From positions 1 to 30,492 of the forward strand of contig CANQVY010000001.1 of NCBI GenBank assembly GCA_947627405.1: a DNA stretch of 30,492 nt, given 5' to 3'. The number at the start of each line of letters is the position of its first letter. Positions within the stretch are counted from its first letter, which is position 1. Both the position numbers and the translations under genes were made by a program. The notes under the pieces are model-generated. The model had not been told where the DNA came from. It did no database searches and saw only the letters and a program-made list of their open reading frames with translations. This DNA is from an uncultured Bacilli bacterium. Lineage in GTDB: Bacteria; Bacillota_I; Bacilli_A; RF39; UBA660. Of the stretch, positions 1 to 21,316 are shown in pieces.

Positions 1-103
1 ATAATTACATTTTAACTATATCATATTGCTTTCTATTTTTTGTTTATTTTTGTCTCACATCATTTACAATTATACAATCTTTCATTTTTTATTACTTATT
101 CAC

Positions 104-234
104 TTATTCACAAGTATGTTAATAAAATTTATGTACTATGTGGATAATTAATTTCAAATTTGTGGATAATTAAAAAAATTGTTATTATATATATATAAAA
201 GTTGTGGATAAGTTTGTGAATTTCTTGTGAATAA
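104..234. promoter_or_regulatory. oriC upstream DnaA-box cluster
   Basis: Perfect TGTGGATAA at 139-147, 161-169 and 203-211. One-mismatch boxes TTATTCACA 104-112 and TGTGAATAA 226-234. Weaker boxes at 117-125 and 215-223. AT-rich, directly upstream of dnaA. Confidence 0.9.
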
Positions 235-327
235 TTCATTTATTATTTTTTTTCCTTTATTTTTCTGTTTATTTGTTTTAGAATAATGTTAATAAATCCT
301 TTTTTTCGGGCGGGGAGGTGTTTATAA

Positions 328-1704
328 ATGAACTATACAATCATATGGGATCATTTTTTAGAAAAAATCAAAGAGAAAATATCGACTTTATCGTATGAAA
401 CATGGTTTAAAGACACTTCTTTATATAGTATTGATAACGGTATTTATAGAATTATTGTTCCTATGTCTATTCACAAAACACATATCAATGATAAGTATAA
501 AGATATTATTGATGAACTATTATCCACAGAAGATAGTAACTACAAAAAGGTAGAATATTTTCTACAGGATGAAATTCAATCTTTAAAGGAAGAAGAAGAA
601 AAACAAGATGAAATTTTAGACAAAAAGGAAAGGGATTCTTCTTTTGATACGAATCTAATAAAAAAATATACTTTTGAAAATTTTGTTGTTGGAAATAGTA
701 ATCGCTTAGCGCATGCTACTGCGGTTGCTGTTGCTGAAAATCCTGGCAGTATTTATAATCCTTTATTTATTTATGGAAATAGCGGACTTGGAAAAACACA
801 CTTAATGCATGCTATTGGAAATTATATTCATGAACATTCCAATAAAAAAGTTTTATATGTTACAAGCGATAAATTTATAGAAGATTTTGTAGGCATTAAT
901 CGAAAAAATAATAATGATAATTTTGATGTAATTGATATTTTTAAAGATAAATATAGAAATATAGATGTTTTAATTATTGATGATATTCAATTCTTAGGGG
1001 GAACTACTCAGTCTCAACAAGAATTCTTTCATACCTTTAATTCTTTATATAATAGTAATAAACAAATTATTATTTCTTCTGATCGATCACCAGATGATTT
1101 AAAAAAGTTAGAAGATCGCTTAAAAACTAGATTTTGTTGGGGAATTACAGTAGATATTCAACCTCCAAATTTTGATTTACGAGTTGCTATTGTAAAAAAG
1201 AAAATTGCAGCTTCTATTATTGAAAAAAATATACCTGATGATGTAATTGAATATATTGCCTTTAATGTGAGTGGTGATGTTAGACAATTAGAAGGATCAA
1301 TCAATCGTTTATTAGCTTATTCTTCAATGATGGGAGGTTGTGATATAACAGTTGATTTAGCTATGGATGCTTTAACAGATTATGTAAGTAAAGGATCTTA
1401 TGAAAAAGATGATATTCATAAAATTCAACGAATTGTTTCTGAATATTTTAAAATTTCGATAGATGATCTAAAAAGTAAGAAAAGAAATTATAATGTAGCT
1501 TTCCCAAGACAGATTGCTATGTATTTATGTAGAACTTGTACGGATGAATCTTTTCCTAAATTAGGAATTGAATTTGGGGGAAAAGATCATTCGACAGTTA
1601 TTCATTCTTGTGATAAAATAGAAAGAGAAATCAAAGTAAATAATGAATTAAGTCAAATTATTGATATTTTGAAAAGAGAAATCAATAGTTGTTCAAAAAA
1701 ATAA
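328..1704 (+). CDS. dnaA: Chromosomal replication initiator protein DnaA
   Basis: YTFENFVVG, Walker A GNSGLGKT, LIIDDIQF, domain IV FGGKDHSTVIHS. SD GGGGAGGTG upstream. Confidence 0.99.
   Translation: MNYTIIWDHFLEKIKEKISTLSYETWFKDTSLYSIDNGIYRIIVPMSIHKTHINDKYKDIIDELLSTEDSNYKKVEYFLQDEIQSLKEEEEKQDEILDKKERDSSFDTNLIKKYTFENFVVGNSNRLAHATAVAVAENPGSIYNPLFIYGNSGLGKTHLMHAIGNYIHEHSNKKVLYVTSDKFIEDFVGINRKNNNDNFDVIDIFKDKYRNIDVLIIDDIQFLGGTTQSQQEFFHTFNSLYNSNKQIIISSDRSPDDLKKLEDRLKTRFCWGITVDIQPPNFDLRVAIVKKKIAASIIEKNIPDDVIEYIAFNVSGDVRQLEGSINRLLAYSSMMGGCDITVDLAMDALTDYVSKGSYEKDDIHKIQRIVSEYFKISIDDLKSKKRNYNVAFPRQIAMYLCRTCTDESFPKLGIEFGGKDHSTVIHSCDKIEREIKVNNELSQIIDILKREINSCSKK
520..528 (+). promoter_or_regulatory. 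Perfect DnaA box inside dnaA coding sequence
   Basis: TTATCCACA at 520-528. Confidence 0.5.
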
Positions 1705-1828
1705 ATTTATAGACATTTTATAAACAATAAAAATTTACAAAAATTGTGTTAAAATAAGAAGAAAAAGAGGTTATCAACAATTTCCACAGTAATAATAATA
1801 AAAATAAAAAAAAGAAAGAAGTGATAAT
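1705..1828. promoter_or_regulatory. oriC downstream part (dnaA-dnaN spacer) with degenerate DnaA boxes and probable unwinding element
   Basis: TTATAGACA 1707-1715, TTATAAACA 1718-1726, TTATCAACA 1771-1779 and ATTTCCACA 1780-1788, followed by (TAA)4 at 1790-1801 and A-tracts. Bipartite origins flanking dnaA are standard in Bacilli. Confidence 0.75.
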
Positions 1829-2947
1829 ATGAAAATTAAAGTAAAAAAAATTGTTTTATTGGAGGAGTTGAATAAAGTTTCAAAAGCTTTATCAAGTAAA
1901 AATATTATACCTGTTTTATCAGGAATCTGTTTTGAAGCGAAAGAAAATAAATTAATTCTTACAGCTTCTGATAATGATATAACTATACAAACCTATTTAA
2001 ATGAGGATAATGAAAATTTAGAAATAAAAGAACAAGGAAATATAGTTATTCAAGGTAAATATATCTTAGATATTGTTCGAAAATTACCAGATGAATATAT
2101 AAATATAGATGTAATTGATGATTCTAAAGTATCTATATATACAGATAATAGTGAATTCAATTTAAATGGAATTAATAAAAAGGAATATCCTACAATTCAT
2201 TTAGAAGAAAGTAAAAATAAAGTTATGTTAAGCAAAGATTTATTTAATGAAATTATTAATCAAACTTGTTTTGCAGCTAGTAATGATGAATCAAAACCTT
2301 CTTTAACAGGAATTAACTTTAATATTACGGGAAATATTTTAGAATGTAATTCTACGGATTCCTACAGATTATCAAGAAAAATAGTCAATTTAAGTGATAT
2401 TAATGAATCTTTTAATTTAATTATCCCAAGTAAAAACTTATTGGAATTTGCTAAAATATTAACGGAAGAGGATATGATTGAAATAAATATTTTTAATAAT
2501 AAATTGTTATTTAAGTATAATCATATTTTATTTCAAACACGTTTAATTAGTGGTACATATCCTAATACATCTAATTTAATTCCTGAAGATCCTATATTAA
2601 AAATAAATATTGATAAAGATTTACTTTATAATACAATAGATCGAACAAGTATTTTAGCTACAGATAAAGAAAAAAATATTATTACTTTAGAAATACAAGG
2701 AAATCATTTAAATTTAAAATCTTTTGTTGCTGAAATAGGAAAAGTAGAAGAAAAAATGATGATAAACAATGAAATGCAAGAGAATATAAAAATTTCATTT
2801 AGTTCGAAATATATGATGGAAGCTTTAAAAGCCTTTTCAACAGAAACTGTGGATATTTGCTTTTTTGGAGAAGTTAAACCGATTATTATTAATTCTACCG
2901 AGGATAAAACATTGACTGAACTTGTTTTACCTATTCGAACTTATTAA
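1829..2947 (+). CDS. dnaN: DNA polymerase III beta sliding clamp
   Basis: 372 aa. IIPVLSGI, STDSYRLS, FQTRLISGTYP and C-terminal LVLPIRTY. Follows dnaA. Confidence 0.98.
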   Translation: MKIKVKKIVLLEELNKVSKALSSKNIIPVLSGICFEAKENKLILTASDNDITIQTYLNEDNENLEIKEQGNIVIQGKYILDIVRKLPDEYINIDVIDDSKVSIYTDNSEFNLNGINKKEYPTIHLEESKNKVMLSKDLFNEIINQTCFAASNDESKPSLTGINFNITGNILECNSTDSYRLSRKIVNLSDINESFNLIIPSKNLLEFAKILTEEDMIEINIFNNKLLFKYNHILFQTRLISGTYPNTSNLIPEDPILKINIDKDLLYNTIDRTSILATDKEKNIITLEIQGNHLNLKSFVAEIGKVEEKMMINNEMQENIKISFSSKYMMEALKAFSTETVDICFFGEVKPIIINSTEDKTLTELVLPIRTY

Positions 2948-2964
2948 TTTTTTCATAAATCAAC

Positions 2965-3024
2965 AAAATTCTACAAAATGAAGTGTTATTTTAATGATAC
3001 TACATTTTATGTAGAATTTTTTTT
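2965..3024 (+). terminator. Long imperfect hairpin plus U-tract between dnaN and comK
   Basis: AAAATTCTAC (2965-2974) pairs with GTAGAATTTT (3011-3020), AAAATG with CATTTT, and AGTGTTATT with AATGATACT (G-U pairs). T8 at 3017-3024. Confidence 0.6.
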
Positions 3025-3035
3025 AGGGGGATTTT

Positions 3036-3500
3036 ATGAAAGATTATGAAATTAATGATGATACTTTAGCAATCATTCCAGTTGATAATAAAAAAACTAA
3101 AGTATTAGAAAAGGACTATGAGTATGTAATTGAACAAAATGCATATAAGGTAATGGATTATAGTTGTCAATATTTTGGTAGTACTTATGAAGGTAGAAAG
3201 GGTGGAAGTAAAAATATTTTAGGAACAGGATATAAAGTGCCTATTTTAATAAGAGAAGATAATTATATTATTTTTTTTCCAACTGAATCTCCATTATTGG
3301 ATACATGTATGTGGATATCATTACATAATATAGAAAGATTTGAAAGAAGCGATAATAATACCACTAAAATTTATTTTAAAGATGGTAAAAACATTATTAT
3401 AGATGTGTCTTTTCGATCTATAGAAAATCAAATTTTAAGATCGACTCGATTAGAATCTGTCTTACGAAATCGATCAAATTCAAAAAATAATATTAAATGA
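3036..3500 (+). CDS. comK: ComK-family competence transcription factor
   Basis: YEIN-DTLAIIP, SCQYFGSTYEGRK, KVPILI, IFFPTES, WIS, F-DG and SIENQILR align by eye with B. subtilis ComK (YEVNGATIAVLP, SCRFFGSSYAGRK, FLFPTLS, WIS, SFENQVYR). SD AGGGGG. Confidence 0.9.
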   Translation: MKDYEINDDTLAIIPVDNKKTKVLEKDYEYVIEQNAYKVMDYSCQYFGSTYEGRKGGSKNILGTGYKVPILIREDNYIIFFPTESPLLDTCMWISLHNIERFERSDNNTTKIYFKDGKNIIIDVSFRSIENQILRSTRLESVLRNRSNSKNNIK

Positions 3501-3511
3501 TAAAATATATT

Positions 3512-3540
3512 AAAAAAAGGACAAAATTGTTCTTTTTTTT
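3512..3540 (+). terminator. Intrinsic terminator after comK
   Basis: A7-GGACA-AAAT-TGTTC-T8. Confidence 0.6.
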
Positions 3541-3549
3541 GTCTATATA

Positions 3550-3558
3550 TGTTATAAT
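3550..3558 (+). promoter_or_regulatory. Extended -10 sigma-A promoter for recF-gyrB-gyrA
   Basis: TGTTATAAT (TGnTATAAT). No good -35 at 17 bp. Confidence 0.55.
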
Positions 3559-3586
3559 ATACTTATGTGTATAGGAGTATTACAAA

Positions 3587-3631
3587 ATGGTAAAAGGTGA
3601 TTTTATGAGCATTTTTATGGCAATAACGTGA
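3587..3631 (+). CDS. Putative leader micro-ORF MVKGDFMSIFMAIT (or MSIFMAIT from 3605) coupled to recF
   Basis: SD AGGAG before ATG 3587 and SD AAGGTGA before the in-frame ATG 3605. Stop TGA 3629-3631 overlaps recF GTG 3628. Confidence 0.4.
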   Translation: MVKGDFMSIFMAIT

Positions 3632-4737
3632 TTTTAAAAAAATTAAGCTTAATAAATTTTAGAAATTATCAAAAAATTTCTATTTCGTTTAATAATACAG
3701 TAAATATTTTTATAGGAAATAATGCTCAAGGTAAAACAAATATTCTTGAAAGTATCTATGTTTTAGCTTTGACTAAATCTCATCGTAATGTTAATGATGT
3801 TCATCTAATTAAATATAATGGGGAATATACCAAAATAGAGGGAAAAATAAAAAAAAACAATTTAATTGATACTTTAGAAATAAAAATAACAAAAACAGAA
3901 AAAAAAGTATTTAAAAATAAAAACAATGTAAAAAGAATATCTGATTATATATCAAATTTGAATGTAATACTATTTACACCTGATGATTTAGAAATTATAA
4001 AAGGATCTCCTTCTATTCGAAGAAATCTATTAAATATTGAAATAAGCCAGATTTCTAATCAATATATTACTATTTTAAATGAATATAACAAATTATTAAA
4101 AAATAGGAATGAATATTTGAAATTATTATATGTGAATCATTTTAGTGATAAAAAATATTTAGATATTATAACTGATCAGCTAATCGAAAAAGCAATATAC
4201 ATCTATAAGAAAAGAAAAAATTTTATTGATGATATAAATAAAAATATATCTAATATCTATCGTTTTATTACTGGAATAGACGGATTATATATTCGATATA
4301 TAAATAATTGTGATATAGATATTTTTGATGAAAATAAAATTAGAGAACAAATGCTTAAGAAATACAAAAATAATTATAAAAAAGAAATTTTAAATGGAAT
4401 GACTTTATATGGGCCTCATAGAGATGATTTTGAATTTCTTATAGGAGATGAAAATTTAAAGTTATTTGGTTCACAAGGACAGCAAAGGTTAAGTATTATT
4501 TGCTTTAAATTATCAGAAATTGATATTTTCAAAGAAAAAAACAATACAAGTCCCATTTTATTATTTGATGATATTTTTAGTGAAATTGATAAGATAAAAA
4601 AGAATAAATTAATAAAATTGATAAATAAGGATATACAAACAATTATAACTGCTACGGATTTAAGAGGAATGAGTAAAAATTTGATTGAAAAATCTTCCAT
4701 TTTTAAAGTAGCATCTGGAAAAATAGAAAGAAGGTAA
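3628..4737 (+). CDS. recF: DNA replication and repair protein RecF
   Basis: LINFRNY, Walker A GNNAQGKTN, GPHRDD, GSQGQQR and LLFDDIFSEID. GTG start. Confidence 0.98.
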   Translation: MILKKLSLINFRNYQKISISFNNTVNIFIGNNAQGKTNILESIYVLALTKSHRNVNDVHLIKYNGEYTKIEGKIKKNNLIDTLEIKITKTEKKVFKNKNNVKRISDYISNLNVILFTPDDLEIIKGSPSIRRNLLNIEISQISNQYITILNEYNKLLKNRNEYLKLLYVNHFSDKKYLDIITDQLIEKAIYIYKKRKNFIDDINKNISNIYRFITGIDGLYIRYINNCDIDIFDENKIREQMLKKYKNNYKKEILNGMTLYGPHRDDFEFLIGDENLKLFGSQGQQRLSIICFKLSEIDIFKEKNNTSPILLFDDIFSEIDKIKKNKLIKLINKDIQTIITATDLRGMSKNLIEKSSIFKVASGKIERR

Positions 4738-4740
4738 TTT

Positions 4741-6666
4741 ATGGAAAATGTCAAAATGGAATCTTATGATTCCTCATCAATTCAAGTATTAGAAGGGCTA
4801 GAAGCAGTCAGAAAAAGGCCAGGAATGTATATTGGAACAACAAGTTCTAGAGGACTTCATCATTTAGTATGGGAGATTGTTGATAATGCTATTGATGAGG
4901 CTTTAGCGGGATATTGTACTCATATAGAAGTAGAAATTGGAAAAGAAAATACGATTACCGTTAAAGATGATGGAAGGGGAATTCCAGTTGGAATTCATCA
5001 AAAAACAGGAAAGAGTACGGTAGAAACTGTTTATACGGTTTTGCACGCAGGTGGTAAATTTGGAGGAGGAGGATACAAAGTATCCGGAGGTTTACATGGT
5101 GTTGGTGCCAGTGTAGTAAATGCATTAAGTGAATGGTTAGAAGTAAAGGTATATAAAAATGGACATGTTTATTTTCAAAAATATAGTAATGGAGGACATC
5201 CAGAAGAAGAATTAAAAATAATCGATACATGTCCTGAAGAAAGAACTGGAACTACTGTAACTTTTAAACCAGATCCAGAAATTTTTACTGAAACCACAAT
5301 ATTTGATTATAGTATTTTGCGAACTAGATTAAGAGAACTTGCTTTTTTAAATAAGGGATTAAAAATAAGCCTATATGATTTAAGAGAGGATAATAAAAAA
5401 GAGTCCTTTCATTATGAAGGTGGATTAAATGAATATGTTGAAATGTTAAATAAAGATAAGAAACCTATTCATGAAACTATAATTTCTTGTAATGGAAATG
5501 AAAATGATATATCTTTAGAAGTAGCATTACAATATAACGAAACTTATAACGCAAGCATATATTCTTTTGTAAACAATATAAATACACCTGAAGGTGGAAC
5601 ACACGAAGATGGTGTCAAGAGAGCTTTAACAAGAATTCTTAACAAATATGCTAAAGAAGCGGGTATCTTAAAAGAAAAGGACGATCCTCTTAGTGGAGAA
5701 GATGTTAAAGAAGGTTTGACTATGATTGTATCTATAAAACATCCAAATCCACAATTTGAAGGACAAACCAAAACAAAATTAGGAAATAGTGAATGTCGAG
5801 GAATATCCGATAAGATTTTTTCAGCGGCTTTAGAAAGATTTTTGATGGAAAATCCAGATCAAGCTCGAGTTATAATTGATAAAGGTATGACTGCATCAAG
5901 GGCAAGAGTTGCTGCAAAAAAGGCAAGAGAATTAACTAGAAGAAAAGGGGATTTGGATATAACAAATTTTTATGGTAAACTTTCTGATTGTAAAAGTAAA
6001 GATCCTTCAGAATGTGAAATTTTTTTAGTGGAAGGAGATTCTGCTGGAGGATCAGCTATTAAAGGAAGAGATAGCATGAGACAAGCTATTTTACCACTTA
6101 GAGGAAAAATATTGAATGTAGAAAAAGCTAGATTAGATAGAGCTTTATCTAATGAGGAAATTCGAACGATTATAACTGCTTTTGGGACAGGAATAGGAGA
6201 CGAATTTAATCTAGATAAATTAAGATATGATAAAATTATTATAATGACGGATGCTGATGTAGATGGATCGCATATTCGAGTCTTATTATTGACTTTATTT
6301 TATCGTTTCTTTAGACCTATTGTAGAAGCTGGACATGTATATGCGGCTCAACCACCTCTATTTGTAATAAAACATGGTAAGACGATAAAATATGTTTTAA
6401 ATGAACAAGAAAGAGATGAATATTTAAAAACATTATCTCCAAATACAAAGTATGATATTATGCGTATGAAAGGTTTAGGAGAAATGGATGCAGAGGAACT
6501 AAATGAAACAACAATGGATATAGAAAAAAGAGTTTTAAGACAAATAACTGTTGAAGATGCAATGTCTGCTGATGATACTTTTTCAAAATTAATGGGTGAA
6601 GAAGTAGAACCAAGAAGAAAATTTATTGAAGAAAATGCAGTTTATGTACAAAATTTGGATATTTAG
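4741..6666 (+). CDS. gyrB: DNA gyrase subunit B
   Basis: [41 protein letters not shown] and DADVDG. Confidence 0.99.
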
Positions 6667-6676
6667 GAGGTAATTT

Positions 6677-9127
6677 ATGGACAGATTAGAGAAAAATAAT
6701 ATAGTTACGGAAGTTAAAGATTCATTTCTTGAATATTCAATGAGTGTTATTGTAGCTAGGGCATTACCTGATTTAAGAGATGGTTTAAAACCTGTGCATA
6801 GAAGAATATTATATTCAATGTATGAATCTGGTTATACTCCTGATAAACCTCATAAAAAAAGTGCAAGAATTGTTGGGGATGTTATGGGTAAATATCATCC
6901 TCATGGAGATTCTTCAATTTATGAAGCTATGGTAAGAATGGCTCAAGACTTTTCTTATAGATATATGTTAGTTGATGGGCACGGAAATTTTGGAAATATA
7001 GAAGGTTATGGGGCGGCAGCTATGCGTTATACCGAATCCAGACTTTCAAAAATTTCATTAGAATTATTGAAAAATATAAATAAAGATACTGTAGATTTTA
7101 TTCCAAATTTTGATGAATCTGAAAAAGAGCCAGAAATTTTACCGTCTCGTTTTCCAAATATATTAGTTAATGGTACGATGGGAATCGCAGTTGGTATGGC
7201 TACTAATATTCCACCACATAATTTAGGGGAAGTTATTGATGGATGTATTGCATATATAGACAATCCGGATATTGATTTAGATGAATTAATGAAATATATT
7301 AAGGGACCAGATTTTCCTACGGGAGGAATAATTCTAGGAAATAGTGGAATTAAAAAAGCTTATGAAACTGGAAGAGGAAGTATTACTATACGAAGTAGAG
7401 CAACTATAGAGGAAAAAAATGGAAAAAATTATATTATAGTTGATGAGGTTCCATATGGAGTTAATACATTAGAATTAAAAAACAAAGTAGCAGAATTAGT
7501 ACACAATAAAGTTATAGATGGGATTACCGATTATCATACAGATTTAAAAGACGGTGTAAAAATAACAATTACTTTAAAGAAAGATGCAAATCCACAAGTC
7601 GTTTTAAATAATCTATATAAGCACACTGCTTTTCAAACAAATTATGGGATTATCTTTTTAATGTTAGATCAAGGAGTTCCAAAAACTTTAGGTTTAAAAG
7701 AAATTATAGTAAAATATATTGATTATCAAAAGGAAATTATTATTCGAAGAACAAAATTTGATCTTGATAAAGATGAAAAAAGGGCTCATATTTTGGAAGG
7801 GTTAAAAATCGCATTGGATCACATTGATGCAATTGTAAGTTTAATTAGAGAATCTAAAAGCGATACTGAGGCCTTGGAAGGATTAATGTCTAAATTCTCT
7901 TTAACAGAGGCACAAGGACAGGCAATCTTAGAAATGAAATTAAGAAGATTAACTGGTTTAGAAAGAGATAAAATTGAAAATGAGTTAAAGGATTTACTAC
8001 AGGAAATTGATGAATTGAGATCTATTTTGGCTAGTGAGGAAAAGGTTTTAGAAATTATTAAAAATGAAATGATTGAAATAAAAAATAAATATGGTGATGA
8101 AAGAAAAACAAATATTGATATGACCGCTATTGATTATATAGAAGATGAATCTTTAATTCCAAATGATGATGTTATTATAACTTTAACCAATAAAGGGTAT
8201 ATAAAGAGGTTAAAATCTGATACGTATAGAACTCAAAATAGAGGTGGTGTTGGTATAAAAGGAATGTCGACTAATGAGGAAGATTTTGTTGAACATTTAA
8301 TATCTATAAAAACACATGACCATGTATTGTTCTTTTCTAATAGAGGAAGGGTATATAGAATTAAAGGATATGAAATACCAGAATTTAGTAGACAGTCAAA
8401 AGGTTTACCAATAATTAATTTATTACCATTGGAAAAGAACGAGAACATTAGTTCGATAATTGGTTTGTCAAAGAGCGATGATCTTTATAAATATTTGATA
8501 TTTATAACCAAATCAGGCCTTACAAAAAGAACTTTATTGTCTGAATTTGAAAATATAAGAAAATCTGGAAAGATTGCAATATCCTTAAAAGATGATGATG
8601 AATTAATAAGTGTAAGATCAACTACTGGAAACAATGAAATTATGATCGGTGCTAGCAATGGAAGAGTGGTTAGATTTAATGAAAAGGAAATTAGGATAAT
8701 GGGTCGAACAGCTTCCGGTGTAAAAGGTATTGATTTAAATTCTAGTAAAGCAATTGGAGGAGAAGTTGTTCAATCTGATAATAAAATATTGATTGTTACA
8801 GAAAAGGGTTATGGCAAACAAACTGAAATAGAAGAATATAGATTAACGCATCGAGGTAGTAAAGGTGTTAAAGCTTTAAATATAACTGATAAAAATGGAA
8901 TGATGGTATCTTTAAAAGCTATTGATAAAAATAAAAATTTAGATATTATGATAATTACTGATAATGGAATTGTCATAAAGATGCCACTTGATCAGGTTTC
9001 TACTTTAAGGAGAGCTACACAGGGTGTTCGTTTGATTCACTTAAAAGAAAATCAGAAAGTTTCTACAACCGCAGTCGTAGATCAAGAAGAAATCGATAAT
9101 TCTTTGGAAATAGTTGAAGAGAAATAA
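6677..9127 (+). CDS. gyrA: DNA gyrase subunit A
   Basis: [25 protein letters not shown] and the GyrA-box QNRGGVG, which distinguishes it from ParC. Confidence 0.99.
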
Positions 9128-9287: not shown

Positions 9288-9316
9288 TTGAAATATTTTA
9301 AAAAATATATTATTAT
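9288..9316 (+). promoter_or_regulatory. sigma-A promoter of ffs
   Basis: TTGAAA (9288-9293), 17 bp spacer, TATTAT (9311-9316). The predicted start falls at the RNA 5' end. Confidence 0.7.
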
Positions 9317-9322
9317 ATTAAA

Positions 9323-9396
9323 GACGCAATAAAAATGATTAGAACCAGGTCAGGACTGGAAAGTAGCAGCCTTAATAATTTCTTTTTATGTGCGTC
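9323..9396 (+). ncRNA. ffs: Signal recognition particle RNA, small 4.5S type
   Basis: Conserved helix-8 core CCAGGTCAGG-ACT-GGAA-AGT-AGCAGCC. Terminal stem GACGCA/TGCGTC plus ATAAAAA/TTTTTAT, followed by a T-run. Confidence 0.92.
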
Positions 9397-9415
9397 ATTT
9401 TTTATAGGTGATAAT

Positions 9416-9847
9416 ATGTGTGATAAATATTATATGAATTTGGCATTAATTCAAGCTAAAAAAGCATTAAAGAAAAATGAAGTTCCAGTAGGTGCAATTG
9501 TTGTTGATGAAAAAGGAAATATAATTGGTAAAGGTTATAATAAAAAGGAAAAACACAAAAGTGTTTGTGAACATGCAGAAATCATTGCAATAACTAAAGC
9601 ATCTAAAAAAATTAAAAGTTGGAGATTGAACAATTGTTCGATATATACTACATTGGAACCTTGCCCAATGTGTGCGAGTGCAATTGAACAATCTAGAATA
9701 AAAAAAGTATATTATGGAACTTCCAGAAAAGATGAGAATAATAAAAAAATAATAAATAATATATTAAAAAATATAGATATTCAAGAAAATATTTATGTAG
9801 AAGAATGCGCTAAATTATTATCCGACTTTTTTAAAAATAGGAGATAA
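9416..9847 (+). CDS. tadA: tRNA adenosine(34) deaminase
   Basis: EVPVGA, HAE and TLEPCPMC zinc motifs. Start moved from ORF-track 9335 (inside ffs) to ATG 9416 after SD AGGTGA. Confidence 0.93.
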   Translation: MCDKYYMNLALIQAKKALKKNEVPVGAIVVDEKGNIIGKGYNKKEKHKSVCEHAEIIAITKASKKIKSWRLNNCSIYTTLEPCPMCASAIEQSRIKKVYYGTSRKDENNKKIINNILKNIDIQENIYVEECAKLLSDFFKNRR

Positions 9848-12538: not shown

Positions 12539-12727
12539 GTGAAAAAAACAATAGTAAATATATTAAAAAAATTTATTTTTGGTTTTATTATATTATATGG
12601 TTATAATTTGATTGCTTCATCATTTAATATGACAATTCCCATTAATATAATTACAATAATATTAGTAAGTGTATTGGGAGCTCCAGCTTTATTTGCGCTT
12701 ATTATGTTACTATTAGTTGTTTATTGA
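12539..12727 (+). CDS. bofA: Pro-sigmaK processing inhibitor BofA family
   Basis: 62 aa, two hydrophobic segments, IPINIIT...LGAPA motif. Syntenic after recR. GTG start with SD GGTGA. Confidence 0.8.
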   Translation: MKKTIVNILKKFIFGFIILYGYNLIASSFNMTIPINIITIILVSVLGAPALFALIMLLLVVY

Positions 12728-12734
12728 GGTGTTT

Positions 12735-13553
12735 ATGATTCATAATAAATATTATAACAATTATTCACAATTTTTTGATTATTTTCATAAAATAATAAAG
12801 GAGGACAAGCTTTCTCACGCTTTTTTAATTGAATGTAGGAATGTAAATAATTATAAAGAAATTATTTTAATGATTATAAAGGAAATTTTAGAAAGTAATA
12901 AATATAATGAGGATTTGGCAATAGAAAATCTTGTTGAAAATAATAATTACCCTGAATTGAAAATCATAGAACCCATTAATCATGTTATTCGAAAAGAACA
13001 ACTTTTAAATTTACAAAAAGAATTTAGTGTCCAATCTATTTATGGGAGATATTTAATTTATATTATTGATGGGGCAGAATATTTAAATAAATCTTCAGCA
13101 AATACAATTTTAAAATTTTTAGAGGAACCGCCATCAAACATTATAGCATTCTTATTAACAAATAATAATTATAATGTGATTGAAACAATTGCATCTAGAT
13201 GTCAAAAAATTACTTTGGGAGAGATAAAACATGAGAATGCATTTTCACCTGATGTTCAAGCCCTTGCAGAAATCTTAGAAAACAAAAAAGATAAGGCTTT
13301 AGGATATATCGATAATAGTTGGTACTCCTTTGATCGGGAAAGTTTAATTATAAGGCTGAAAGAATTACAAAATTATTACTTATTTCAATTAACAAAGATA
13401 AAACAGTTAAGAGAAAGTAGTAATATCAAAGCCTTATCAAATATTTCTAAAAAAATAATAATTATAGATGATTGTTTAAATAAATTACGTTATAATGTTA
13501 ATATAAAGCTTTTAATTGATAAATTCATTTTATCTATGGTTGGGGTGATTTGA
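12735..13553 (+). CDS. holB: DNA polymerase III subunit delta'
   Basis: LSHAFL, SANTILKFLEEPP and TIASRCQ. Start set at ATG 12735 after SD GAGGTG. Confidence 0.9.
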   Translation: MIHNKYYNNYSQFFDYFHKIIKEDKLSHAFLIECRNVNNYKEIILMIIKEILESNKYNEDLAIENLVENNNYPELKIIEPINHVIRKEQLLNLQKEFSVQSIYGRYLIYIIDGAEYLNKSSANTILKFLEEPPSNIIAFLLTNNNYNVIETIASRCQKITLGEIKHENAFSPDVQALAEILENKKDKALGYIDNSWYSFDRESLIIRLKELQNYYLFQLTKIKQLRESSNIKALSNISKKIIIIDDCLNKLRYNVNIKLLIDKFILSMVGVI

Positions 13554-14338
13554 TGTACAATGTAGTAGGAATATCTTTAGAAGGAAGCAGTAAAATTTAT
13601 TTTTTCGAAACAAACAATATTGCTTTGAAAAAGGGACAATTTGTAATTACGGAATTAGATAGTGGATTAGGTTATGGAAAAGTTGTTATTGGTCCAAAAA
13701 ATGAAAAAAAAGAAAATTTGATTTTTCCATTAAAAAAAGTAATTCGTATTGCAACACAACAGGATATAAAACAGTATGATATGGCAAAAAAGGAAAGTAT
13801 AAAGGTTATTAAAAAAGCCAAAGCCATTGCTGATAAATTAAAGTTAGATATGAATTTTGTTGATGCACAGTTTACCTTTGATAAGAGCCAGTTGTATATA
13901 AAATATACAGCTGATGATCGAATTGATTTTAGAGAATTAGCGAAGAAGTTAGCGCAAGTTTATAAAACACGAATTGAATTGAGGCAGATTGGTGTTAGAG
14001 ATAAAGCAAAGCAAATGGGTGGATTAGGACCTTGCGGGCGAATATTGTGCTGTAATTCTTTTTTAAATGATTTTGAGAGTGTATCTATAAATATGGCCAA
14101 AAATCAGTACTTGTCTTTAAATCCTACAAAAATTAATGGAGTATGTGGAAGATTATTGTGTTGTTTAAACTATGAAGATGAAATTTATACAGAATTGAAA
14201 AAAGGTATGCCTGCGATAGGGGATAAATATAAAACAGAAAGAGGCTTGGCTGAAGTGGTGGAAGTGAATCTATTCAAAAAATATTTTTTTGTTGAAACAA
14301 GTGATAAAATAATAGAAAGAATAGATATGGAAAAATGA
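13553..14338 (+). CDS. ricT: RicT/YaaT (PSP1 domain) protein
   Basis: ADDRIDFRELAK, RIELRQIGVRD, GPCGRILCC, GVCGRLLCCL-YE. ATG overlaps holB TGA. Confidence 0.95.
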   Translation: MYNVVGISLEGSSKIYFFETNNIALKKGQFVITELDSGLGYGKVVIGPKNEKKENLIFPLKKVIRIATQQDIKQYDMAKKESIKVIKKAKAIADKLKLDMNFVDAQFTFDKSQLYIKYTADDRIDFRELAKKLAQVYKTRIELRQIGVRDKAKQMGGLGPCGRILCCNSFLNDFESVSINMAKNQYLSLNPTKINGVCGRLLCCLNYEDEIYTELKKGMPAIGDKYKTERGLAEVVEVNLFKKYFFVETSDKIIERIDMEK

Positions 14339-21091: not shown

Positions 21092-21316
21092 ATATTTAAA
21101 AGTTTTGAAGGAAAGAGTATATAAAAATTGCTATTATAGAGAGCTTTGTTAGGTGAAAGAAAGTATAGCATATTTATAGAACATGGTTCTGGAACTTACT
21201 TCTCGATATTTAGATTAGTACGTTAACTACGTTAAAAGTTTTAGAGAGTATGATTTTATATCATAAATTAAGGTGGTAACACGGTAACTCGTCCTTTTGC
21301 TAGGATGAGTTTTTTC
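21092..21316 (+). promoter_or_regulatory. Met T-box riboswitch
   Basis: AGAGAGC and GGTGAAAG stem-I motifs. Specifier ATG at 21183-21185. T-box AAGGTGGTAACACG at about 21270-21283. Terminator ACTCGTCCT/AGGATGAGT plus T-run at 21286-21316. Confidence 0.93.

Follow-up and report, generated by a model that had tools for sequence, protein, structure and literature searches.

A ComK-family gene beside the replication origin of uncultured gut Bacilli: a putatively Spo0A-controlled unit in a fixed location with an incomplete competence gene set

In Bacillus, ComK acts as the bistable competence switch familiar from textbooks, and its occurrence in the most conserved gene cluster of a chromosome, behind boxes of the Spo0A type, raises the question of what this regulator does beside a replication origin. 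The gene in question, comK, lies in a stretch of 30,492 nucleotides (the window; positions 1 to 30,492 of contig CANQVY010000001.1, assembly GCA_947627405.1) from an uncultured Bacilli bacterium (GTDB lineage Bacteria; Bacillota_I; Bacilli_A; RF39; UBA660), in the gene order dnaA-dnaN-comK-recF-gyrB-gyrA, with the flanking genes confirmed by Pfam. In Bacillus, the slot between dnaN and recF is occupied by yaaA. A sequence-only reading of the window had placed a ComK-family gene in that slot and had proposed that the lineage is naturally competent, with comK reached by read-through from the DnaA-controlled dnaA-dnaN transcript. The gene and its place are borne out by the present analysis, and we regard comK here as a variant, conserved at the level of a lineage, of a familiar arrangement in which ComK is under Spo0A-type control; its fixed location is odd and the competence set is incomplete. 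The explanation that we consider the most probable is that comK forms a functional, single-copy, stand-alone unit under Spo0A-type control across the family, with this control being weak in the genome of the window, and that it probably does not serve canonical transformation. The lineage is uncultured, which sets a practical limit, since everything beyond the sequence is inference.

The open reading frame (ORF) at 3036-3500 on the forward strand is a true, full-length ComK-family gene. Residues 2-147 of its product match positions 2-151 of the 152 positions of the Pfam model PF06338 with 150.1 bits (E 5e-44), against a cut-off of 22.3 bits, and the profile search gave exactly one ComK match in the metagenome-assembled genome (MAG) to which the window belongs (1,197,693 bases in 148 contigs, 87.8% complete, 27.8% G+C). 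The same genome has no match to the yaaA family S4_2 (PF13275) in a profile search, within the completeness of the MAG. A protein search returned 785 relatives at E <= 1e-10, nearly all metagenomic and of 144-157 amino acids; a few of them are named ComK by their source. The NCBIfam scan of the protein matched no family, and a PDB sequence search gave no solved relative, with chance L6 matches only. The protein belongs to the same family as B. subtilis ComK across the whole Pfam model, is likewise encoded in a Spo0A-bearing organism, and shares with its own relatives the blocks SCxYFGSxxEGR, FFPTxSP, CxWISL and RSTRLE, which are counted here among the likenesses to the B. subtilis protein. B. 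subtilis ComK has 192 amino acids, whereas the protein of the window has 154 and stops 7 residues past the Pfam core, the two having been compared through the family model; the B. subtilis protein extends by about 40 amino acids at the C-terminus beyond this core. Given that dN/dS between close pairs is 0.13-0.15, the gene is under purifying selection, and intact comK ORFs are found in 24/24 same-family genomes of 0.8-1.3 Mb. A short form of ComK has been kept throughout in some of the smallest genomes known from gut spore-formers.

Besides these 24 same-family genomes, ComK is present in the single genome that represents a sister family within the order, and in 6/15 other families of the class. 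The order dnaN-comK-recF-gyrB is shared by 20/24 same-family genomes and the sister-family genome, and dnaN-comK-recF recurs in 5 metagenome contigs of the same genus and in 13 further representative contigs from gut or rumen, labelled uncultured Bacilli, Tenericutes or Erysipelotrichaceae, one of which is a closed 1.5-Mb chromosome. Because the order recurs across the family, the sister family and other contigs, the placement is neither chance nor the assembly artefact, absent from relatives, that the sequence-only reading had named as a way for it to fail. Three genera have relocated the gene, two of them to a position after pcrA-ligA (G010 and G017) and one elsewhere (G019), and in all three the degenerate boxes phased at 10 bp, described below, have moved along with it; the remaining genome (G009) has a partial match only. 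An ancestor of the order, the members of which are uncultured Spo0A-bearing gut Bacilli with genomes of about 1 Mb, would have fixed comK in the dnaN-recF slot beside oriC. A literature search on comK together with dnaN and recF gave nothing relevant. In one closed 1.5-Mb MAG (OZ006970.1, locus L041), an insertion of 1.9 kb with a reverse-strand ORF and repeated flanks, probably a mobile element, parts comK from the recF promoter.

The dnaN-comK gap is 88 bp long and all five genes are co-oriented, an arrangement in keeping with transcription of comK from upstream, as the sequence-only reading had proposed. This gap is occupied by a long hairpin (Table 1), which at 2964-3021 folds with -25.2 kcal/mol, compared with -10.3 +/- 2.5 for shuffled sequences (z -5.85; 0/200 shuffles as good), and the Shine-Dalgarno (SD) sequence of comK begins one base past the U8 run. 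Hairpin and U-run are kept in 8 genus-level sequences, in which the arms are invariant. In other genera the spacer is longer and holds a canonical dnaN terminator, followed by a promoter region that contains boxes and a -10 resembling TATAAT, and often by a small hairpin just before the SD of comK. Of all hexamers, AGGGGG shows the strongest enrichment across 28 orthologous dnaN-comK spacers. Relatives also carry elements equivalent to the terminator-like hairpin after comK. Because a strong conserved hairpin with U8 precedes the SD, and relatives have separate terminators and promoters, read-through from dnaN into comK, as proposed in the sequence-only reading, is unlikely and unsupported, although some leakage through the dnaN terminator is possible. 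The predicted picture is rather that of an insulated, monocistronic unit, with a dnaN terminator, a promoter region and an SD of its own, and a terminator ahead of the recF promoter. In the genus of the window we infer a promoter embedded in the hairpin itself, around TGTTATTTTAA in its apical part, a possible extended -10. A transcript starting there would not contain the 5' arm of the hairpin and would therefore escape termination, which is plausible but unproven. A consensus scan of positions 1-5000 for sigma-70 promoters and terminators found 45 sites resembling promoters where 46 were expected, and not a single terminator; the hairpins were missed because the rule on GC pairs overlooks AT-rich stems, and folding and comparative alignment were used instead. 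A small hairpin of variable sequence directly 5' of the SD is seen in many genera (L029-L041, L011, L037, L016), which suggests a conserved structural element of the comK leader, either an mRNA stabiliser or an attenuator.

The promoter regions of comK in the family have a repeated box in common. TTCGACA occurs in 19 copies in 16 of the 28 orthologous spacers, which are non-redundant, against 0.08 copies expected from genome 7-mer frequencies; all copies are on the strand of comK and their spacing is exactly 10 or 20 bp, with 2-3 phased boxes in most genera. The core TCGACA is found 23 times in forward and 0 times in reverse orientation in these spacers, and 0 times in the comK-recF spacers. 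Read on the opposite strand, TTCGACA is TGTCGAA, the core of the Spo0A box. Spo0A contacts G2, C4 and G5 of this core, which is recognised by the Spo0A proteins of both C. difficile and B. subtilis (PMC3485338). In B. subtilis, Spo0A~P binds the comK promoter (PcomK) directly, through three activating and two repressing sites (PMC3297582). Within the family, Spo0A_C is present in 31/31 genomes and the Spo0A recognition helix SRVERAIRHAIEVSW is invariant; spo0A of the window genome (contig C8) has both the receiver and the Spo0A_C domain by Pfam. Because the comK promoter of the family would be built from two or three helically phased TTCGACA boxes with the 0A core, direct control by Spo0A~P, of the kind shown for the comK promoter of B. 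subtilis, is the most likely. Both systems thus have several 0A-type boxes in the comK promoter region and a Spo0A; the boxes of the family differ in forming a compact same-strand array with exact 10/20-bp phasing next to the -10, without the ComK, Rok and CodY layers of B. subtilis. A reading of these repeats as DnaA boxes was rejected, given that the DnaA core TCCACA is found in 0 of the 28 spacers and that perfect TTATCCACA boxes stand upstream of dnaA instead.

The boxes were followed beyond comK by a family-wide search for tandem sites, which is more informative than calibration on single boxes in the window genome. The exact tandem TCGACA-N4-TCGACA gives 23 sites in 15/31 family genomes, compared with 1 for the reversed control. 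These sites lie upstream of comK (three genomes), of spo0A itself and of some further genes; one genome has them between dnaA and dnaN, and in five genomes they lie upstream of an orthologous membrane histidine kinase of about 410 amino acids (HisKA and HATPase_c); those inside an rbgA-like coding start in three genomes are taken as chance. The kinase (L068, L072, L078, L081 and L087; C45:6120-7397 in the window genome) is a multi-pass membrane protein with no adjacent response regulator seen. In five genera its upstream region carries consensus Spo0A boxes in twos or threes; the window genome has one box there, and another consensus box about 50 bp before spo0A. This makes the orphan kinase a candidate sporulation kinase that may form a positive feedback loop with Spo0A. 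Most plausibly, comK would be a member of a small core Spo0A regulon of the family. If this wiring is true, the link between Spo0A and ComK is older than Bacillus and survives extreme genome reduction. In one genus (L070, G012:C4), the dnaA-dnaN spacer carries a tandem TTATCGACA just upstream of dnaN, with a perfect 0A core and one mismatch from the DnaA box, which recalls the overlap of Spo0A and DnaA boxes at oriC of B. subtilis.

To this family picture the window contributes a variant, in which the boxes are degenerate and fused to the terminator, together with the context of its gene inventory. The consensus TGTCGAA is absent at comK of the window, where the boxes read TTCTACA, ACTACA and TGTAGAA; throughout the genus, T stands in place of the consensus G in each of the boxes, invariantly in eight sequences. 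The pair CAACA-N4-TCTACA is positionally equivalent to the TCGACA-N4-TCGACA arrays of other genera, and it is the outermost boxes that make up the hairpin's outer stem. Compared with PcomK of B. subtilis, the version of the window therefore differs in having degenerate boxes embedded in a terminator hairpin. Because the boxes are degenerate and lie inside the hairpin, control by Spo0A is less certain in this genus, where the input of Spo0A is probably weak or has a high threshold, or may have disappeared.

Part of the machinery that ComK would be expected to serve under the proposal of natural competence is indeed present. ComEC is found in 31/31 family genomes and a comEA-comEC operon in 20/20 relatives examined; the domains are as expected, SLBB and HHH_3 for ComEA, and DUF4131, Competence and Lactamase_B for ComEC. 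A PilC/ComGB-like platform protein and a prepilin peptidase are encoded on contig C16 and a PilB/ComGA-like ATPase on contig C110, which is cut at its 5' end; the gene order of a comG-like operon was not seen. About nine prepilin-type genes and two Tad-like ATPases are present in addition. DprA (PF02481), in contrast, is found in 1/31 family genomes; in the set of relatives it is found in 0/24 family genomes and 0/1 sister-family genomes, versus 8/16 other families over the cut-off. ComFC (TIGR00201) is over the cut-off in 0/31, the best match, of 38.8 bits, being in the sole DprA-bearing genome. MecA (PF05389) has no match in the window genome, within the completeness of this MAG. The DNA-uptake half of the machinery is thus present, and the half for processing and recombination of single-stranded DNA, judged by DprA and ComFC, was not found, so that of the earlier proposal the uptake genes stand and natural competence of the lineage is doubtful.

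The link between ComK and these genes was looked for in their upstream regions. Paired AAAA-N5-TTTT K-boxes (spacing 8, 18 or 31) have 0 exact matches in 510 upstream regions; with up to two mismatches there are none at comK, recF or pilC, and no listed near-match upstream of comEA, pilin or pilus genes. Bacillus-type K-boxes upstream of com genes, which the sequence-only reading had proposed as a check, were therefore not found. This is weak evidence, because the motif of ComK may differ in this lineage. Upstream of comEA, many genera have AAGGAAAT followed by GAAT 12-14 nt later, which resembles the sigma-H promoter consensus. In Staphylococcus, com operons are driven by SigH. A sigma-H-like reading of the comEA upstream region is unsupported here, because the search for the cognate SigH equivalog (TIGR02859) gave weak generic sigma-factor matches only. 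In sum of differences from B. subtilis, comK lies beside oriC here and far from it there, and MecA, DprA, ComFC and Bacillus-type K-boxes at the comK promoter and com genes were not found.

Several observations on the inventory stand beside these results. The whole family has the comEA-comEC locus (C31:2350-3042 in the window genome, L055; loci L103-L122 in relatives), which often comes after an ftsW/spoVE-like gene. Two proteins of 571 and 599 amino acids (C84:644-2359 and C84:3577-5376) have N-terminal prepilin (N_methyl) motifs, and three pilins of about 190 amino acids are encoded on C113, a type IV pilus set far larger than what a minimal comG operon would hold. In the DprA-bearing genome, dprA stands beside a ComFC-like gene on one short contig (L046/L047, G042:C13:1-3478); with 3% contamination in this genome, the pair is either contamination or a re-acquired comF-dprA module. 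In a comparison of 16 other families of the class, f5 is the only one in which strong ComK occurs together with strong DprA, a pattern that is not a test since kin are not independent; in f1, f2 and f7, families with small genomes, ComK and Spo0A were found and DprA was not. The window also contains ricT (PSP1, 13550-14338), following holB (12717-13553), which is the usual place of ricT in B. subtilis. The sequence-only reading had mentioned ricT in connection with competence; the gene is there, and given its ordinary position it is no evidence for competence.

What ComK would do with an uptake system of this kind may be considered in the light of nucleotide metabolism. AIRS (PurM/PurL) and OMP decarboxylase (PyrF) are each found in 0/31 family genomes and in 14/14 control genomes, for which reason the family appears unable to make purines and pyrimidines de novo. 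With DprA and ComFC not found and these markers missing, ComK is probably not the driver of canonical recombinational transformation, and if it controls DNA uptake at all, nucleotide supply would be the more plausible purpose. Com homologues of E. coli allow DNA to be consumed as a nutrient, and in Listeria monocytogenes a ComK-dependent Com system acts in escape from the phagosome. As in these uses other than transformation, ComEA/ComEC and pilus genes are kept here without a complete recombination branch; the difference is that the present case is purely inferential, with no link of ComK to com genes found. In its most specific form, which we regard as quite improbable, a short, Spo0A-wired ComK beside oriC would govern a DprA- and ComFC-independent uptake through the pilus and ComEA/ComEC that feeds nucleotides to replication before or instead of sporulation, with the placement at the origin tuning its dose. 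If the wiring to Spo0A is as proposed, the lineage would also be a natural test of whether Com machinery can persist for the acquisition of nucleotides and not for recombination.

The position beside the origin has itself been a candidate cause. In S. pneumoniae, competence is triggered by gene dosage through the origin proximity of comCDE, and in B. subtilis the placement of phosphorelay genes at origin or terminus shapes the pulses of Spo0A~P (PMC5034851). These precedents, together with the distance of about 2.8 kb between comK and the DnaA-box cluster upstream of dnaA, which marks the locus as origin-proximal, and with the persistence of the position in most of the family and in the sister family, would fit a model in which the place at oriC is retained for its effect on dosage, whatever the promoter of comK: under replication stress or fast growth the gene would gain in copy number and tip a threshold switch. 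As with comCDE, the gene of a competence-type regulator then stays close to oriC, at a distance of a few kb, throughout a lineage. Unlike comCDE, ComK belongs to another regulator family, and positive feedback or dosage sensitivity is without evidence here: there are no K-boxes at comK that would point to autoregulation, a feedback which a dosage-sensitive switch would need. Moreover, few regions resist rearrangement as well as the core origin cluster does, so that its conservation may be passive, and because three genera have relocated comK and retained both gene and boxes, the origin position is not essential. This model is therefore held to be unlikely, and a functional role of the position is possible but unproven. 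The opposite view, that comK entered, or took over from yaaA, a slot which resists disruption, that its location means nothing for regulation and that ComK regulates something unrelated to DNA uptake, is doubtful but deserves more credit. It is favored by the insulating terminators on both sides of comK, by promoter boxes that move with the gene, by DprA, ComFC and MecA not being found and K-boxes missing at com genes, and by the rarity with which ComK and DprA meet in the 16 other families. What it accounts for less well is a gene under purifying selection and universally kept in such small genomes, and the fact that both contexts of comK are made of replication and repair genes (dnaN/recF and pcrA/ligA), which hints at something beyond chance.

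The coupling of competence to replication initiation through read-through, in a lineage that would be transformable, draws on the short gap between co-oriented genes, on the lack of a strong sigma-70 promoter scored in that gap, and on the hairpin occupying the expected promoter site, which would make leakage the simplest route of expression if there is no internal promoter; the ComEA/ComEC and pilus genes are in keeping with it too. The strong genus-conserved hairpin with U8 directly before the SD, the separate terminators and box-bearing promoters of other genera, the spacers devoid of the DnaA-box core, and the failure to find DprA (apart from one genome) and ComFC across the family all speak against it, and its probability is accordingly judged low. 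Lower still is that of the phased boxes binding another regulator, whether DnaA at variant boxes, ComK itself or a repeat-binding response regulator of unknown identity. The boxes of the window genus and of several others (TTCTACA) do depart from the 0A core at a contacted base (PMC3485338), and TTATCGACA, found in some genera, differs from a DnaA box at a single position; however, the invariant core TTCGACA has G where DnaA boxes have C, the DnaA-specific prefix TTAT is not conserved, TCCACA is missing from each of the 28 spacers and perfect TTATCCACA boxes stand upstream of dnaA instead, the same tandem arrays precede spo0A and the candidate sporulation kinase, and the boxes do not match the AAAA-N5-TTTT box of ComK. 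Because terminators would insulate the gene, its wiring appears to be of the Spo0A type and key transformation genes were not found, comK is probably no simple switch that couples competence to replication.

The preferred explanation, of a stand-alone comK under Spo0A-type control, has its own weak points. In the window genome a single TTCGACA is only about 2.4-fold enriched in intergenic DNA and several copies precede unrelated genes, so that the single-box targets are mixed and include leuS, recU and a LytTR regulator next to spo0A and the orphan kinase. The enrichment of boxes is partly due to shared ancestry, because the loci compared are kin. The boxes of the window have the C4-to-A change in the 0A core, at a base contacted by Spo0A, while the recognition helix is unchanged; mutation of C4 strongly lowered Spo0A binding in vitro (PMC3485338), and binding at these boxes may be poor or lost. 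The hairpin shows no covariation, and conservation of its arms could reflect binding of a protein and not RNA structure; the consensus scans for sigma-70 promoters and terminators were uninformative, and the comK promoter, start site and terminator efficiency are predictions. On the side of gene content, the absence of DprA and ComFC rests on hidden Markov model (HMM) searches of MAGs that are 81-98% complete, and no link was found between ComK and comEA/comEC, the upstream region of which looks sigma-H-like.

Table 1. Coordinates of features around comK in the window.
Feature	Position	Strand	Remarks
DnaA-box cluster (oriC / dnaA promoter region)	104-234		three perfect TTATCCACA and two one-mismatch boxes
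dnaA	328-1704	+	Pfam Bac_DnaA, Bac_DnaA_C, DnaA_N
dnaN (sliding clamp)	1829-2947	+	Pfam DNA_pol3_beta domains 1-3
Degenerate tandem pair CAACA-N4-TCTACA	2961-2975	+	TTCTACA at 2969-2975; invariant in 8 genus-level sequences
Long imperfect hairpin with 8-T run, terminator-like	2964-3024	+	outer stem AAAATTCTACA/TGTAGAATTTT, apical stem GTGTT/RAYAC
ACTACA; inverted TGTAGAA; invariant TGTTATTTTAA	2999-3004; 3010-3016; 2985-2995	+	within the hairpin 2964-3024
Shine-Dalgarno AGGGGGA of comK	3025-3031	+	read from sequence
comK	3036-3500	+	154 aa; PF06338 150.1 bits; single copy; dN/dS 0.13-0.15
Terminator-like hairpin after comK	3512-3541	+	A-run, GGACA/TGTTC stem, T-run; centroid structure
recF promoter, extended -10 TGTTATAAT	3550-3558	+	conserved across genera (comK-recF spacers)
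recF leader	3567-3631	+	conserved GTGTATAGGAGTA and 8-codon upstream ORF (uORF, 3605-3631); read directly from sequence
recF	3628-4737	+	Pfam SMC_N
gyrB (4741-6666) and gyrA (6677-9127)	4741-9127	+	Pfam

Some further features of the window may be added. DnaA-box matches number 23 in the whole window against 11.7 expected, and 5 of them make up the cluster upstream of dnaA. A signal recognition particle (SRP) RNA lies at 9315-9411 and a T-box leader at 21096-21299; the ORF listed at 9335-9847 overlaps the SRP RNA and is probably no gene. The leader of recF contains a nearly invariant GTATAGGAGTA element, conserved across genera and often forming the 5' arm of a small hairpin. The stop of its uORF, which encodes MSIFMAIT, overlaps the GTG start of recF, and this suggests translational coupling or leader control of recF.

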